64,000 bases of DNA from Thermoanaerobaculia bacterium (GCA_036399915.1 DASWME010000127.1:14305-78304), one strand, 5' to 3'; counted from the first letter of the stretch, positions 26,736 through 61,870 are shown. A program made the numbers and translations. Notes: generated by a model not told the origin, from the letters alone.

Positions 26736-27230
26736 ATGCCCAGGACTCGCACCGGCCAGACGGTCGGCGATTGGATGAAGCTGATTCAGGCGGACACCCC
26801 GGAGGCCGTGGCCGGCATTCCCCATCTGGAGCATGCGCGCGAGAAGCTCCGGGGGCATCTCGACGAGATCCAGAGGCTCCTCGCCGAGCGCGACTTCCAC
26901 GAGGCCCGCAAGCAGGAGGCGAGCCAGCGGATCCAGGAAATCCTGGAGGAGGGGCGCCGGGCGGCGACCGCCCTGCGGGTCGTGCTCCGGGAGCATCTCG
27001 GCCCCAGAAACGAGCAACTGGCCGCGGACGGAAACGCCGGCCGAAGCCGGAGTCCGGGGATTCCCCGGAAAGCCGGGATGGGAGCGAGCCGCAACGCTCC
27101 GGCGATCCCTCGGCCTAGCCGCCGTCCCGCTCTTTCACCTCTCCTCCCGAGGGAAAGCCGTCTTCCCTCCTTCCGACGGCCTGGCAATGGAGGGAAAGCC
27201 CTCTTCCCTCCTTATTCAGGACGTTTTTAG
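26736..27230 (+). CDS. Hypothetical protein. The first approximately 120 aa look coding, but the 3' end runs into the palindromic repeat array.
   Basis: A GAGGAG ribosome-binding site precedes ATG 26736. The N-terminal region is helical and charged. The last approximately 40 codons are encoded by the tandem repeats, so the real stop is uncertain. Confidence 0.35.
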   Translation: MPRTRTGQTVGDWMKLIQADTPEAVAGIPHLEHAREKLRGHLDEIQRLLAERDFHEARKQEASQRIQEILEEGRRAATALRVVLREHLGPRNEQLAADGNAGRSRSPGIPRKAGMGASRNAPAIPRPSRRPALSPLLPRESRLPSFRRPGNGGKALFPPYSGRF

Positions 27231-27580
27231 GAGGGAACGTCGCTTTCCCTCCTTCCGTCGGCTCGCCGGAAGAAGGGAAAGCCGTTTTCCCTCCGGAGAC
27301 AAGGTGACGGAAGGAGGGAACGTCGCTTTCCCTGGAACCAACGGCTCGTCGGAAGGAGGGAAAATCGTTTTCCCTCCAGATTCAGGCCGTCCTGAGGAGG
27401 GAAAATGACTTTCCCGCGATCGCCGGGCCGTCGGATGGAGGGAGCGTCGCTTTCCCTCCTTCCGATGAGCCGCCGCAAGGAGGGAAGATGGCTTTCCCCC
27501 GGGATACAGAGCGTCGGAAGGAGGGAAAGCGACGCTCCCTGCGGAGACGAGCCGTCCGAAGGAGAGGAGCGGCACCGTCG
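27140..27580. repeat. Tandem array of about ten imperfect palindromic units of roughly 44 bp each (core GGAGGGAAAG-N4-8-CTTTCCCTCC, flanked by TCGGAAGGA / TCCTTCCGA arms).
   Basis: Ten units are readable directly: gagggaaagccgtcttccctcc, gagggaaagccctcttccctcc, gagggaacgtcgctttccctcc, aagggaaagccgttttccctcc, gagggaacgtcgctttccctgg, gagggaaaatcgttttccctcc, gagggaaaatgactttcccgcg, gagggagcgtcgctttccctcc, gagggaagatggctttcccccg, gagggaaagcgacgctccctgc. The period of 43-44 bp is not a multiple of 3. Loop and spacer sequences vary. Confidence 0.85.
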
Positions 27581-27829
27581 GCGGCGATCGGGTAGACTCT
27601 CTGGGAAGAACCGTGGTGGCAGCATCTGAGAAAAGGGACAGCGTTCAGAAGAATCGTATCTCTGGACGCCGCCTGCCGGCCTACATCGAGTTGGCCAGTC
27701 CGGTCGAGCCGGCCTGGCTGGCCGCGTTGCGCCGGCAGAAGTGCCTGGCACCTGATGAATTTTCTTCTTTGATGCCACATGAGCGAGGGCCCTGTCGCGC
27801 CCAGGAACTGGACGCACGAGGAGGTCTCG

Positions 27830-28180
27830 ATGAGGAAGATCGGCTTTCTGTTGGCTCTCGCTCTCGCTTCATGGACCCGCCCGGCTGTCGCCGAGCCCAC
27901 CCCGCTGGTCGCATTCGACCACGGCGGTGATCTGGTCACCGTCTGGGAAGCCGGAAGCTCTCTCCTGGCCCGCTTCTTCGGCGCTGCGTTGCCGGACACC
28001 GGCTCTCCTCTCAGCTCCCGTCGGCCGCCGCAGACGGCAGGTCCCGTACCCTCGACCCGACGTCCGCTTCTCGGGACAGGGCACCGAGCGCCTGGCCTTC
28101 CCGATTTCGGGAGCGCCACGCCGGCCCGCCAGACCCGAAGGCGCCTCCAGTCTCCGACCCCTCCGCGGCAGCTTATCTGA
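27830..28180 (+). CDS. Possible small secreted protein (weak call).
   Basis: A GAGGAGG ribosome-binding site precedes ATG. MRKIGFLLALALASWTRPAVAEP is signal-peptide-like. The C-terminal half is low complexity. Confidence 0.25.
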   Translation: MRKIGFLLALALASWTRPAVAEPTPLVAFDHGGDLVTVWEAGSSLLARFFGAALPDTGSPLSSRRPPQTAGPVPSTRRPLLGTGHRAPGLPDFGSATPARQTRRRLQSPTPPRQLI

Positions 28181-28413
28181 TAACGCCGTTGAGACATCAG
28201 CTCCCGGCCTTTGCCGCACCCGAGGCAAGCCAACTTTCGGGAAAGCGGGGATTTGGGGACTCCACCCGGCCAGATCCGGCCGTTGCCTCACCGTCGCCTT
28301 TCTGGATCGGATGGGCCTCCAGCCCCGACCGCGAGACGCTCATCTCTCTCTGTCCTTGACGGCGCCAGGGAACCGCCATAAGATCCAGATGGCCAAGAAA
28401 ATGAACGACTTAG

Positions 28414-49453: not shown

Positions 49454-52150
49454 GGTATGGGGTTCGCGCTCCGGCTCCCGTCGCCGCTCCCGCCGGGTGA
49501 AGAACGAGATGGCCCGCTGGAGGATCGAGGGCTCGGCCCGGATGGGAGCGGCCGGGGCCGCGGGACCGGATCGGAGATTCTGGTGACGGCGGTTCGGGGA
49601 GTCGACACCGGGAGGCCCTCCTCCTAGCCTCCCCCCTTGCGTCCACCCCCCTCCCAGGGGGGAGGAATCTTCCTCGCCGTCGTGGTCACGTTCCCCCTCT
49701 CCCGCGGCGCGGGAGAGGGGACCAGGGGGTGAGGGCTCCCGGGCGGGGGCGCCCGGCCGGGTCAGGAACCCCCTCGCCGTCATCTCCGCCGCCATCTCCT
49801 CGATCGGCTCCACCGCCATCGCGAGATTCACGCAGACCGGCTCGCTCCAGGCCACCGCCGGCTCTTCCAGCCCCAGCAGCAGCCGCAGCGCCCGCGCCGC
49901 GCCCAATTTGTCCAGAGGCCGGTTGCCGTTGCCGCACTTGGGCGACTGCACGCAGGAGGGGCACCCCTTCTCGCAGGGGCAGCCCTCGATCAGCGCCAGG
50001 ACGCGGCCGAGCAGGTCCTTCAAATCCGCGAAGCCACGGGCGGCGATGCCCACGCCGCCGGGGTGGCCGTCGTAGATGAAGACCGCGCCGCTGCCGATCT
50101 GGGGGTGGAGCGGATAGGAGATGCCGCCGATGTCCCCGCGGTCGCACAGGGCGAGGATGGGAAAGAGGGAAATGCCGGCGTGCTCGGAGGCATGGAGGGA
50201 GCCCAGGAAGTGCTCCCCCTGGCGGCGCAGCGTCTCCTCGACCGGCCGCGGCGCCGCCCACCAGAGCCCCACCGTCTCGAACTCCACCGGCGGCAGGTCG
50301 AGCGGCGTCTGGTCGATCGTCTCCTGGCCGTGGATGCGCTTGCGCTCGAAGCCCACCACGCGCTCGGTGACCTTGAGCCGGCCGAGCCAGGCCTGGAGCG
50401 GGCCGTCGCTCTTCTCCTCCAGCACCTCCAGGATCTCGGTCTCCTTCTCGGTCAGAGGCGTCGTGAAGTAGTCGAGGTCGGCCGCCACGGCCTTCACCCG
50501 GCGCTCCTCGCGCTCCAGCGCCTCCACCAGATACTGCCGGCCGGCGTGGAGGTAGACTGCCCCCGGGTGGCACTCGTGAAGCACGCGGACGCCGTCCACC
50601 GTGCCGATCGTCCGTCCGTCCACGAGGATGGCGAACGTCTCCCCCGTCCCCCGCAGGTTGACGTAGCGCTGAGGCCTGCGGCGCAGGCAGAAGATCTCGT
50701 CCCCCTCGGCCGCGGCCAGCAGGTGCCCCTGGTCGAGGAGCTTCTCCACTCTCGTCCCATGCCGCTCGAGGTAGGGCCGGTCCTCGCCGCAGAGGGGCAT
50801 CTCGGAGGCGGCGCAGACGAGGTGGGCCCGCGACACGGGATCGTTCTCCGGGTCCACGATGAGCCGCTCGCAGGGGCGCTCCAGGAACTCCTCCGGATGA
50901 TCGAGAAAGTACTGGTCGAGCGCGTCGGGCAGGGCCACCAGGGCGGTGATGGACTCGCGGCCGGCGCGGCCCACCCGGCCCGAGCGCTGCCAGGTGGCCA
51001 TCATGCTCCCGGGATAGCCCACCAGGATGCAGGCGTCGAGACCGCCGACGTCGATCCCCATCTCCAGGGCCGACGTGGAGATCACGCCGTCCAGCCGCCC
51101 CTCGAAGAGGGAGCGCTCGATGCGCCGCCGCTCCTCGGCCAGGAAGCCGGCGCGGTAGCTCGCGACGCGCGCGGCCAGGGCCGGCTCCTGGCGGCGCAGC
51201 CAGGAGTAGAGCAGCTCGGTGATGCGCCGCGCCTTGGTGAAGACGATGGTCTTCAAGCCCGCGTTGAGCAGGCGGACGAAGAGCTGGAGGGCGGTCGTGT
51301 ACGGGCTCGCCTCCGGCCGGTAGAGCAGCAGATGCCGTCCTTCCCGCGGCGCGCCCGACTCAGAGATCCAGCGGAAGGGGCGGCCGGTCAAGGTCTCGGC
51401 GAACTCGCCAGCGTTGGCGGCGGTAGCCGAAGAGGCGATGAGCACGGGCTCGCTGCCCACGGAGCGGCAGAGCCGCAGGAAGCGCTGGAGCACGTGATGG
51501 AAGTGGCTGCCGAAGATGCCGCGGTAGGTGTGCAGCTCGTCGAGCACGATCCAGCGCAGGTCCGCCAGGAACGGCCCCCAGGCCGTCCAGTGGCCGAGGA
51601 CGCCCAAATGGAGCATGTCGGGGTTGGAGATCACCACCCGCGGGAAGTTCTTGCGGATGGCCGTGCGCTTCGCCCCCGGCGTGTCGCCGTCGTAAATCTC
51701 GCAGCCGGCGATCTCGGGCGGCAGCCCGGCCTCTTCGGCCAGGCGGCAGAACTTCCCCCGCTGATCCTGCCCCAGAGCCTTCAAGGGGAAGAGGAAGAGC
51801 CCGTGCCCCGGGCCGCCCCGCACCGCCTCCTCCAGCGCCGGCACCTGGAAGATCAGCGACTTGCCGGACGCCGTGGGGGTGGTGACCAGCACGTTCTCGC
51901 CGCGGCGCACGGCCGCGATCCCCGCCGTCTGATGGCTCCAGAGATGGGGGACGCCCCCCTTGCCGAGCGCCCGGGCAATGGGTTCCGGCAGCGGCGGGTC
52001 GAGCTCGCCATAGACCACATCGCTTCCCGGCAGGTGCGCGGCGTAGAGGAGCTGCGGGCCGAGCTTCGCGTCGAGGCGTAGCTCCTCGACCAGGGGGCCC
52101 AGCTCGGAGGACGGCGGGGGGACAGCGGAAGCGATTGCGTTACGGGGCAT
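49454..52150 (-). CDS. DEAD/DEAH-box helicase with a C-terminal DUF1998 zinc-ribbon domain (MrfA/YprA-like). The 3' boundary is uncertain because the frame stays open into the exonuclease gene.
   Basis: Walker A TPTASGKS, DExH motif VLDELH, helicase C-terminal motifs, and DUF1998 Cys cluster CPCEKGCPSCVQSPKCGNGN. A low-complexity linker of about 135 aa contains palindromes and no stop codon. Confidence 0.8.
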
Positions 52151-60312: not shown

Positions 60313-60370
60313 TGGGGGAGAAGGGGAATCCACTATACTAGGCCCCATAAAATATTCGCGCGGCTCATTC
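60313..60370 (+). repeat. Left copy of a direct repeat: a 28-bp perfect core CCCATAAAATATTCGCGCGGCTCATTCG preceded by a GGGGAGAARGGG motif.
   Basis: The core at 60343..60370 is identical to 61843..61870, an exact 1500-bp offset. The upstream G-rich motif is also shared (60313..60325 and 61819..61831). Confidence 0.85.
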
Positions 60371-60464
60371 GGAGCCACCCTAATCTTGGATCGCATTCAA
60401 GGCTTCACCCCCCCTCCCCCCTCTCCAGCTCCGCTGGGGAGGGGGGCAAAGGCGGTAGGAGCCT

Positions 60465-61385: not shown

Positions 61386-61818
61386 GGCAGTCTCCTTTGT
61401 CGAGTCCGCGTGCCGGCCGGCTTTCGCACCCTACACATACCAGATTTTGATATTTGTGTCGATAGGCAGCCTAGCGACTTTAATTTTTTCGAGGTGCGCG
61501 CGTACCAGGAAAGACCAGGGGGCGGGGGACCGCTCCTGGGCTTCCCGCTCCGGCCAGCTCCGCTTTCACCACCCGGCCCACCACGAGCGTCAGGTCGTCC
61601 TCGAAGGCGCCCGCGCGTTTGCTCGAGCTTCATGCCCTGATCTGGGGACTCCTCGCCGCGCTCTGATCCCGGCTCCTCGCAGGTCGGCAGCACTGGGGAG
61701 GCGCTTCTCTGCGGGATGGAGGGGTTCCCGCGCAGGGAGATGACAACGCCCTGCCAGGGAAAGGGCTCGCCCGGTCGGGGAAAGCCCCTCTCCCCACGGG
61801 GAAGGCCTCTTCCCCAGT

Positions 61819-61870
61819 GGGGGGAGAAAGGGAGCCACCAGGCCCATAAAATATTCGCGCGGCTCATTCG
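61819..61870 (+). repeat. Right copy of the direct repeat, immediately upstream of the ECF sigma start.
   Basis: Identical 28-bp core, which ends 13 nt before ATG 61884. Confidence 0.85.

Follow-up and report, generated by a model that had tools for sequence, protein, structure and literature searches.

A palindrome array behind a small-protein gene in Thermoanaerobaculia: a recurrent gene-array pair and a candidate phased DNA platform

What might a row of ten regularly spaced palindromes do directly behind a small gene annotated as 'hypothetical'? The question is raised by a stretch of 64,000 nucleotides from a Thermoanaerobaculia bacterium (GCA_036399915.1 DASWME010000127.1:14305-78304; hereafter the window), in which such an array follows the 3' end of a short gene near 27.1 kb. 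Arrays of the same build were found behind homologues of this gene across a large protein family and in numerous Acidobacteriota genomes, and the small gene and the array can be regarded with high confidence as a conserved two-part module. Based on the sequences and a predicted structure, we give a probability of about 0.5 to the reading that the array is a phased DNA-binding platform for the protein encoded next to it. The features of the locus are as follows.

26736-27020, plus strand: intact N-terminal part of the small gene, about 95 codons (MPRTRTGQTVGDW...ERDFHEARKQEA...NEQLAA), recognised by coding signature, homologues and the hidden Markov model (HMM) of the family
27014-27118, plus strand: out-of-frame remnant of the C-terminal tail (ATGRGRKRRPKPESGDSPESRDGSEPQRSGDPSA), recognised in translation by the RGRKR motif and the GDPSA ending
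27119-27230, plus strand: read-through tail of the annotated open reading frame (ORF) of 164 aa, in the wrong frame and entering array units 1-2
27138-27552, no strand assigned: palindrome array, ten units of 41-42 bp built on the dyad GGAGGGAA-N7-TTCCCTCC
27553 to about 27575, no strand assigned: degenerate eleventh left arm (CGTCCGAAGGAGAGGAG...), found by reading the sequence; the decayed end of the array

Organization of the palindrome array

The sequence-only reading had placed here ten tandem units of 44 bp, each a palindrome with 14-nt arms and a variable centre. Position and copy number were confirmed by Tandem Repeats Finder (TRF), by repeat search and by manual registration, which set the unit starts at 27148, 27189, 27230, 27272, 27313, 27355, 27396, 27437, 27479 and 27520. 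The period, however, is shorter than claimed. The spacings between unit starts are 41, 41, 42, 41, 42, 41, 41, 42 and 41 bp, with a mean of 41.3 bp, each 41.3 bp being made up of two inverted half-units of about 20.7 bp, and the array spans 415 bp in total. Registration of the units also bore out the palindromes with variable centres. The dyad is perfect in three units, and the remainder carry one or two mismatches, mostly in the right arm, at the outer end and uncompensated; the GGGA...TCCC core is invariant in all units. Arms of 14 nt hold as a consensus but not for the single units, most of which have arms of 8 bp around a 7-nt centre. Some arms are extended, to CGTCGGAAGGAGGGAA on the left or to TTCCCTCCTTCCGACG on the right, and these long arms are located mostly on separate units, both being present only on unit 8. 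The unit centres are found in either orientation, some of the AGCCGTC type and some as its complement, and the identity of the array with its own reverse complement is 0.56, compared with at most 0.45 for the controls.

With up to three mismatches allowed, the core GGAGGGAA-N7-TTCCCTCC was detected in 10 copies within the 64 kb, all of them inside the array. Shuffled windows contained 0.54 copies on average, and none of 100 shuffles reached 10. The same locus is present, 100% identical, in three other contigs or assemblies (L001-L003).

The earlier view of the array as non-coding and not CRISPR-like was upheld by stop codons, by composition and by the lack of a unique-spacer structure. All six frames, which had been described as open, carry one or two stop codons each, and GC content at the third codon position (GC3) gives no coding signal; together with the period of 41/42 bp, the stops and the non-coding composition rule out a protein-coding tandem repeat. 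A CRISPR, in which repeats of 23-50 bp alternate with unique spacers of comparable or larger size and which is accompanied by cas genes or a leader, was also rejected: the unit is a 23-bp dyad with a variable centre, the 18-19-bp linkers are partly repeated as arm extensions, and no cas genes are located nearby. The array gave no match to Rfam at the gathering threshold, the sole match in the window being a tRNA elsewhere; at E<=1, only sub-threshold models of eukaryotic miRNA precursors were retrieved for the array, on both strands.

The small gene and its decay in the window

The small gene had been noted earlier as a mere landmark. Its placement was right, the ORF abutting the array; what had been missed is that the gene is the conserved partner of the array. 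Within 26736-27020, GC content at codon positions 1, 2 and 3 is 0.77/0.42/0.88, a strong coding signature, and the upstream ORF is coding-like only in this part. The family HMM matches the window gene with E = 1.7e-39, at profile positions 5-102 only. The frame read from 26736 is family-like up to ...NEQLAA and divergent thereafter, and the following tail was recognised, by comparison of its RGRKR motif and GDPSA* ending with the family members P0030, P0007 and P0032, in another frame. Since FGIQPF is absent between LAA and RGRKR and the tail is out of frame, a frame-shifting deletion of about 20 nt can be deduced. The ancestral stop codon is located at 27116-27118, and the array begins 20 nt later. 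Past this stop codon the coding signature is gone (0.72/0.79/0.67, then 0.65/0.61/0.48), and homologues stop 30-45 residues short of the annotated end of the 164-aa ORF; the read-through tail at 27119-27230 is probably not a real protein.

The repeat units of the window array are more diverged (66-70% matches) than those of many intact modules (75-93%). Because the gene is frameshifted, FGIQPF is lost and the repeats are comparatively diverged, the copy in the window probably represents the relic of a gene-array module in decay. A further stage of decay is represented by locus L120, in which a gene remnant of 28 codons lies next to an intact array.

The word-indexed search retrieved 35 homologues of 118-136 aa at E<=1e-3, all of them 'hypothetical' and from Thermoanaerobaculia, and a full profile scan at E<=1e-3 gave 953 cluster representatives (50% identity). 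The family protein is about 130 aa long and helical, with a basic arginine/lysine tail. In the AlphaFold2 model (31 homologues; mean predicted local distance difference test score, 78), two short N-terminal helices are followed by a long helical hairpin, formed by residues 29-54 and 56-88, and by a C-terminal tail predicted to be disordered, which begins after the conserved C-terminal motif E-x-L-A-x-F-G-I-Q-P-F-R-G-R-K-R. The invariant or most conserved stretch of the family, RDF(H/Y)EARKQE, is located at the predicted tip of the hairpin. Searches of Pfam, NCBIfam, PHROGs and PADLOC with the window protein and with close and distant members returned only sub-threshold coiled-coil noise, and the best E-values against PDB were 0.19 in the profile search and 2 in the Foldseek search with the AlphaFold model. 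A tblastn search against 72,556 plasmids and 50,697 phages gave no family match. When a ribbon-helix-helix N-terminus was considered, no strand was seen in the model and the hydrophobic pattern did not fit.

Association of the gene and the array across genomes

A DNA-pattern scan for pairs of adjacent GGGAA-N7-TTCCC dyads, with each species represented by one genome, detected about 26 array loci in Thermoanaerobaculia, Holophagales and other metagenome-assembled genomes (MAGs) of Acidobacteriota. These arrays consist of 4-10 units with a period of 41-42 bp, occasionally of 21, 62-63 or 84 bp. They are intergenic, often between convergent genes and 2-30 nt from stop codons, and Thermoanaerobaculia and Holophagales carry several arrays per genome, at several intergenic loci. 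The small gene or its remnant adjoins 10 of the approximately 26 arrays, with the array directly 3' in 9. A protein search of the loci fetched by pattern gave matches in L095, L012, L096, L107, L055, L033, L049, L120 (the remnant) and L110; except for L110, the array is immediately 3' of the gene and co-oriented with it in all of these loci. Conversely, L123, L124/L125, L126, L127 and L129, fetched by the protein alone, all carry arrays of 5-13 units, located 33-139 nt past the stop codon.

When metagenomes were scanned with the protein profile, 71 loci were obtained, among which 58 were distinct and had at least 250 nt of downstream sequence. An array was scored when a tandem period was a multiple of 20.6 +/- 0.8 bp. 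By this criterion a downstream array was detected in 48 of the 58 distinct loci, L132 being a 49th case by motif count, compared with an upstream array (within 700 nt) in only 3 of 54 loci. Across the family, the array, when present, starts about 1-300 nt past the stop codon, with a median of 90 nt. The window has all parts of the module so defined, i.e., a homologue of the family (here frameshifted), an array within about 300 nt of the stop codon, a basic period of 20-21 bp, dyad symmetry and a span of about 370-420 bp.

One distant homologue, in L128, differs in arrangement. It has no downstream array, and 18.7 copies of a 21-bp direct repeat are located about 300 nt upstream (2275-2701), directly before a promoter-like site, TTGACA...TATTCT. 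This repeat overlaps a called ORF of 184 aa without Pfam match, and it may represent a heptad-repeat protein or a miscalled array.

The neighbour genes are variable, and no recurrent NTPase, Rep or transposase was detected in the neighbourhoods examined. Genes for TPR proteins flank four modules and were considered as a third component; they are not counted in the module because they are absent at the window and at most other loci.

Could the palindromes be selfish or structural elements of the REP or BIME kind (repetitive extragenic palindromes; bacterial interspersed mosaic elements), amplified in tandem at gene 3' ends, with the small gene as a favoured neighbour? The presence of several arrays per genome, at intergenic sites unrelated to each other and commonly flanked by convergent genes with gaps of 2-30 nt, is in agreement with this view, as in L009 and L084 after a gene for M14 carboxypeptidase, in L039, and in L113 after a PhoD gene; so are the remnant next to an intact array in L120 and a second small cluster in the window.

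61760-61830, no strand assigned: orphan cluster of array-type palindromes (GGGAAAGGGCTCGCCC, GGGGAAAGCCCCTCTCCCC, GGGGAAGGCCTCTTCCCC) with 21-bp spacing and no adjacent small gene

TRF detected the period of 21 at 61776-61816 within this cluster. The bias of 48 of 58 downstream versus 3 of 54 upstream, however, includes subfamilies without GGGA-type sequence, and since the association is found across unrelated repeat sequences, one spreading repeat family is no explanation of it. REPs are defined by an unpaired GTAG or CGTC tetranucleotide at one hairpin end, and those of the CGTC group have a stem of 8-9 bp, a loop of 4-5 nt and a CCA tail and occur mostly as head-to-head dimers (PMC3733652). 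The present elements resemble REPs and BIMEs in being extragenic imperfect palindromes of 20-40 bp at gene 3' ends, sometimes clustered and at several loci per genome, and the long arms in the window start with CGTC and finish with GACG. The idea of a CGTC REP, which these arm ends suggest, was dropped against the family definition (PMC3733652): here CGTC is paired within the stem, and only in some units, and is not an unpaired tag; the arms are 8-16 bp long around a 7-nt centre, in regular head-to-tail arrays of period 41-42; and the arrays are tied to one gene family. The defining tag, the stem and loop sizes and the head-to-head dimers are all lacking.

No Y1_Tnp or RAYT transposase gene was found among the called genes within 10 kb on either side of the window locus, nor in the gene tables of the other loci. 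Outside the array and the orphan cluster, GGGAA-N7-TTCCC (up to one mismatch) is present only once in the 64 kb, at 2124-2140; the dispersal observed is two clusters plus one isolated core in the window, and several arrays in each related MAG. The earlier suggestion of a REP-like element thus survives as far as related arrays exist at several intergenic loci per genome, and fails on the features by which REPs are defined. We judge a REP-like origin improbable, next in rank after a role as RNA.

In L009 (913-1243) and L084 (3365-3670), arrays of the GGGGAAYG...CRTTCCCC type are syntenic, both lying directly after the M14 carboxypeptidase gene in two different Acidobacteriota MAGs. The shared site indicates that orphan arrays can persist at orthologous positions.

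Conserved geometry and changing sequence

A basic period of 21.0 bp was measured in 25 loci and of 20.0 bp in 9, the others lying at 20.3-20.9 bp. B-DNA has 10.4-10.5 bp per turn, and the basic period of 20-21 bp is therefore two turns of B-DNA. The palindromic unit of 42 bp consists of two alternating half-units of 21 bp, hence the spacings of 21, 63 and 84 bp. The median array span is about 370 bp, and dyad symmetry (reverse-complement identity of at least 0.5) was detected in 43 of 52 arrays but in none of 48 control regions.

Protein subfamilies differ in the sequence of their repeats but agree in the period, symmetry and length of the array. In the arrays of close homologues GGGA-N9-TCCC is invariant, with GGGAA/TTCCC as a variant of the core in the family. 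Paired variants of the arms are found: all 11 units of L126 have GGGAG/CTCCC, and L123 has GGGAC/GTCCC. A further array variant in the family is GGGCACG-N3-CGTGCCC. The arrays of distant subfamilies are composed of GGAGGGCACG-N3-CGTGCCCTCC, TTGCAAGCTTGCAA, GTACCGGTAC, GAACGCGTTC, GCAAGCTTGC or TCGAAC/GTTCGA units.

These comparisons bear on the proposal that the arrays are neutral minisatellites, i.e., functionless products of the expansion of a single palindromic terminator by strand slippage or unequal crossover. Near-identical unit copies in L033, L055 and L048 point to recent expansion or concerted evolution, and the window array shows higher-order repeats with periods of 83 and 124 bp. 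In the window, however, the core has been kept while spacers and centres have diverged, and hundreds of diverged homologues are followed by arrays built alike, equal in period, symmetry and length though not in sequence. Functionless expansion appears very improbable to us.

DNA platform or RNA partner

The main rival of the DNA reading, which we hold to be unlikely, is that the array is transcribed, as a 3' untranslated region or as a non-coding RNA in its own right, and that the transcript forms a series of about ten hairpins. The hairpins might stabilise or terminate the mRNA, or might be bound by the arginine-rich protein, either in CsrB-like sequestration or in the manner of a type III antitoxin. 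Both strands of the window array fold better than shuffled sequences (z = -9.2 and -12.1), a result which is trivial because the units are palindromic. In L128, which has no downstream array, a plain terminator hairpin is present at that position. The compensatory changes of the arms (GGGAG/CTCCC and GGGAC/GTCCC, and the pair 6:12 as A:T, C:G or T:A) would also suit an RNA stem.

When the stem mismatches were counted in gene orientation, G:U (96) was not above A:C (88), and about 20% of the stem positions were otherwise mismatched; thus the mismatches give no hint that pairing in a single transcript has been selected for. Not only unit centres but entire half-arrays are found in both orientations, as in L175, in which half of the array is forward and half inverted. 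A terminator-like site (GC hairpin and T-run) separates the stop codon from the array in 10 of the 14 distant members and also in L130, with no promoter evident after the site in the distant members; the array, therefore, need not belong to the transcript of the gene. The strict period of 20-21 nt across unrelated sequences is not obviously needed by an RNA, and the Rfam results given above add no RNA family to which the array could belong. The long multi-hairpin RNA proposed in the sequence-only reading accordingly gained no support from mismatches, orientation or the terminator-like sites of distant members. We favour the DNA level because the period equals two turns of B-DNA despite unrelated sequences, G:U is about as frequent as A:C, both orientations occur, and terminator-like sites precede the array in most of the distant members.

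Several observations weigh against the DNA platform. About 16 of the approximately 26 arrays derived from the pattern scan have no adjacent small gene, indicating that this type of array can exist, and perhaps spread, alone. In the GGGA-type subfamily, to which the window belongs, the arrays begin 7-140 nt past the stop codon and usually have no terminator between gene and array, which makes co-transcription likely there; the GGGA-type arrays, including that of the window, are probably co-transcribed with the gene. In upstream and promoter regions the array motif is present at chance level only, so that there is no sign of classical autoregulation. The arginine-rich tail could fit RNA binding equally well, and no recognisable DNA-binding domain was detected in the family protein by library or structure searches. 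In addition, co-variation of protein and array is also expected from vertical co-inheritance alone.

On the DNA-platform reading, the array would be the cis-acting half of the conserved module and the upstream small gene would encode the other half. The units may serve as DNA sites for dimers or oligomers of the predicted helical-hairpin protein with its arginine/lysine tail. With sites two or four helical turns apart, the bound proteins would be aligned on one face of the duplex and could assemble into a higher-order nucleoprotein complex. Such a complex might act like a plasmid centromere (sopC, parC) or like an iteron or titration array, yet on the chromosome and without a motor or Rep. Candidate roles include nucleation of chromosome structure, protein titration or autoregulation, and a roadblock or terminator between convergent genes. 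More tentatively than the platform itself, we propose an undescribed and widespread chromosomal nucleoprotein system of Acidobacteriota, in which the protein would assemble on its own array of about 400 bp with about 20 phased, dyad-symmetric half-sites, with co-evolving specificity, several paralogous modules plus orphan arrays per genome, and no motor, Rep or transposase.

If this proposal is correct, the module would represent a locus of a new kind, serving as a centromere-like site, for chromatin nucleation or for titration. The gene-array link ties a large family of 'hypothetical' small proteins (the 953 clusters above) to a recognisable DNA partner, and provides a direct hypothesis of function in an abundant and poorly studied soil phylum. 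Should the protein bind the array, nature would offer many orthogonal protein/repeat pairs with the same geometry and different sequences, useful for studies of co-evolution in DNA recognition and as parts for DNA tagging or scaffolding. Should the array act as RNA instead, the pair would represent a novel repeat RNA together with the protein dedicated to it.

Comparison with known systems

In the F-plasmid centromere sopC, twelve tandem repeats of 43 bp, all containing an inverted repeat of 16 bp, directly follow sopB. The arrays described here resemble sopC in their tandem units of about 42-43 bp (about four helical turns) with an inverted repeat, in the copy number of about 10-12, and in the location directly 3' of the gene for the presumed binding protein. 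In contrast to the sop system, no SopA/ParA ATPase is encoded nearby, the protein shows no relation to ParB in Pfam or PDB, and the module is chromosomal, with several paralogous copies per genome.

Among ParR/parC systems, parC of R1 carries ten 11-bp iterons, and pSK41 carries 20-bp tandem repeats to which the small protein binds cooperatively. The likeness here is a small protein (about 110-135 aa) whose C-terminal tail is flexible, encoded next to a phased array with a period of about 20 bp. The differences are that no ParM-like actin gene is present, that the array is located downstream and not at the promoter, and that no ribbon-helix-helix is predicted. Phased repeats beside a gene, the arrangement of a centromere, are thus found in the window and in the 48 of 58 homologous loci, binding by the protein being presumed; no partition NTPase of the ParA, ParM or TubZ type, which in partition systems is encoded beside the centromere, mostly on plasmids or close to oriC, was detected in any neighbourhood examined.

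Iterons are direct repeats of 17-22 bp to which a Rep initiator binds at an origin of replication. Those of theta plasmids such as P1 incA and F incC are repeats of 19-22 bp, about two turns apart, which lie downstream of rep and titrate Rep. Phased repeats of about 21 bp after the gene of a presumed binding protein are common to both cases, and titration is conceivable here as well. Except for the basic period, however, iterons do not fit: the present units are inverted or alternating and dyad-symmetric, not direct repeats, and no winged-helix Rep, origin features or plasmid context were found. Membership in the centromere and iteron families fails because there is no partition NTPase, Rep or plasmid context.

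Two RNA-based systems were also compared. The type III antitoxin ToxI consists of 5.5 repeats of 36 nt next to toxN, and the present module shares with it a protein gene directly beside tandem units of about 36-45 nt. In ToxIN, however, the array precedes the gene and a terminator lies in between, the units are pseudoknots and the toxin is an endoribonuclease, whereas here the array is downstream, the units are palindromes and the protein is a predicted helical hairpin. A type III toxin-antitoxin system was rejected on the downstream location of the array, the helical-hairpin protein, and the lack of a PADLOC or Pfam match. The RNAs CsrB and RsmZ measure about 350-400 nt and carry some 18-22 GGA sites, in agreement with the total of about 400 nt and about 20 half-units of the array. 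In contrast to CsrB and RsmZ, GGA is located here in stems and not in loops and is missing from the arrays of other subfamilies, and there is neither a strand signal nor an Rfam match.

Other features of the window and of neighbouring loci

Four further groups of palindromes had been described earlier as related to the array. This relation stands for 61760-61830 only. The other three (34583-34675, 49646-49720 and 60411-60452) belong to a second palindrome family, CCCCTCTCC-loop-GGAGAGGGG, which is unrelated to the array, is sometimes nested within CCTCACCCC...GGGGTGAGG, and looks REP-like and dispersed.

A perfect direct repeat of 28 nt, CCCATAAAATATTCGCGCGGCTCATTCG, is present at 60344-60371 and again, after 1499 nt, at 61843-61870. 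Between its copies lie a minus-strand ORF of 306 aa and the orphan palindrome cluster. The repeat could mark the edge of an element or derive from the duplication of a promoter.

The region next to the array, 27.6-28.4 kb, is gene-poor, as the sequence-only reading had it, with a weak coding signal; it had also been called high in GC, yet its GC content is 0.656 against 0.676 for the window. A signal-peptide-like start of a short ORF at about 27830, within these otherwise non-coding 800 bp (27600-28400), suggests a truncated gene. The public gene call of 271 aa at 27382-28233 (minus strand) enters the array. Because it has no coding composition and its translation is arginine-rich and junk-like, this call is probably false. 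Gene callers repeatedly place false ORFs through arrays of this type, here the calls of 271 aa and 164 aa.

A direct repeat of 115 nt (92% identical) is located at 28466-28580 and 30463-30577, 1997 nt apart, and codes for the C-terminus of an ORF resembling SAM methyltransferases (...AGFTAVDRLV..FFQPVLVATNP..*). A low-GC gene with a Fic domain (28698-30233) is enclosed by the two copies, and the arrangement looks like an insertion or duplication in a decaying region.

As by-catch of the pattern scan, several unrelated repeat families were obtained, including loci L004, L006, L015-L016, L023 and L105. Rumen Prevotella contributed TTCCCACGTTGGGAATAA arrays with a unit of 22 bp, Nostoc 39-bp GGGAACTATTAGTTCCC repeats, Tannerella GGGAATTGCCGATTCCC arrays with a unit of 21 bp, and a single Chloroflexaceae MAG GGGGAAACCGGGTTTCCCC palindromes, present on dozens of its contigs.

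Genes of the toxin-antitoxin or defence type, such as BrnT/BrnA, Uma2, DUF4160/DUF2442, CHAT, Fic and GNAT, are often located just beyond the modules, as in L124 (5355-6731), L095 (5056-6348), L127 (3211-3748) and the window (28698-31232). The arrays may border variable islands.

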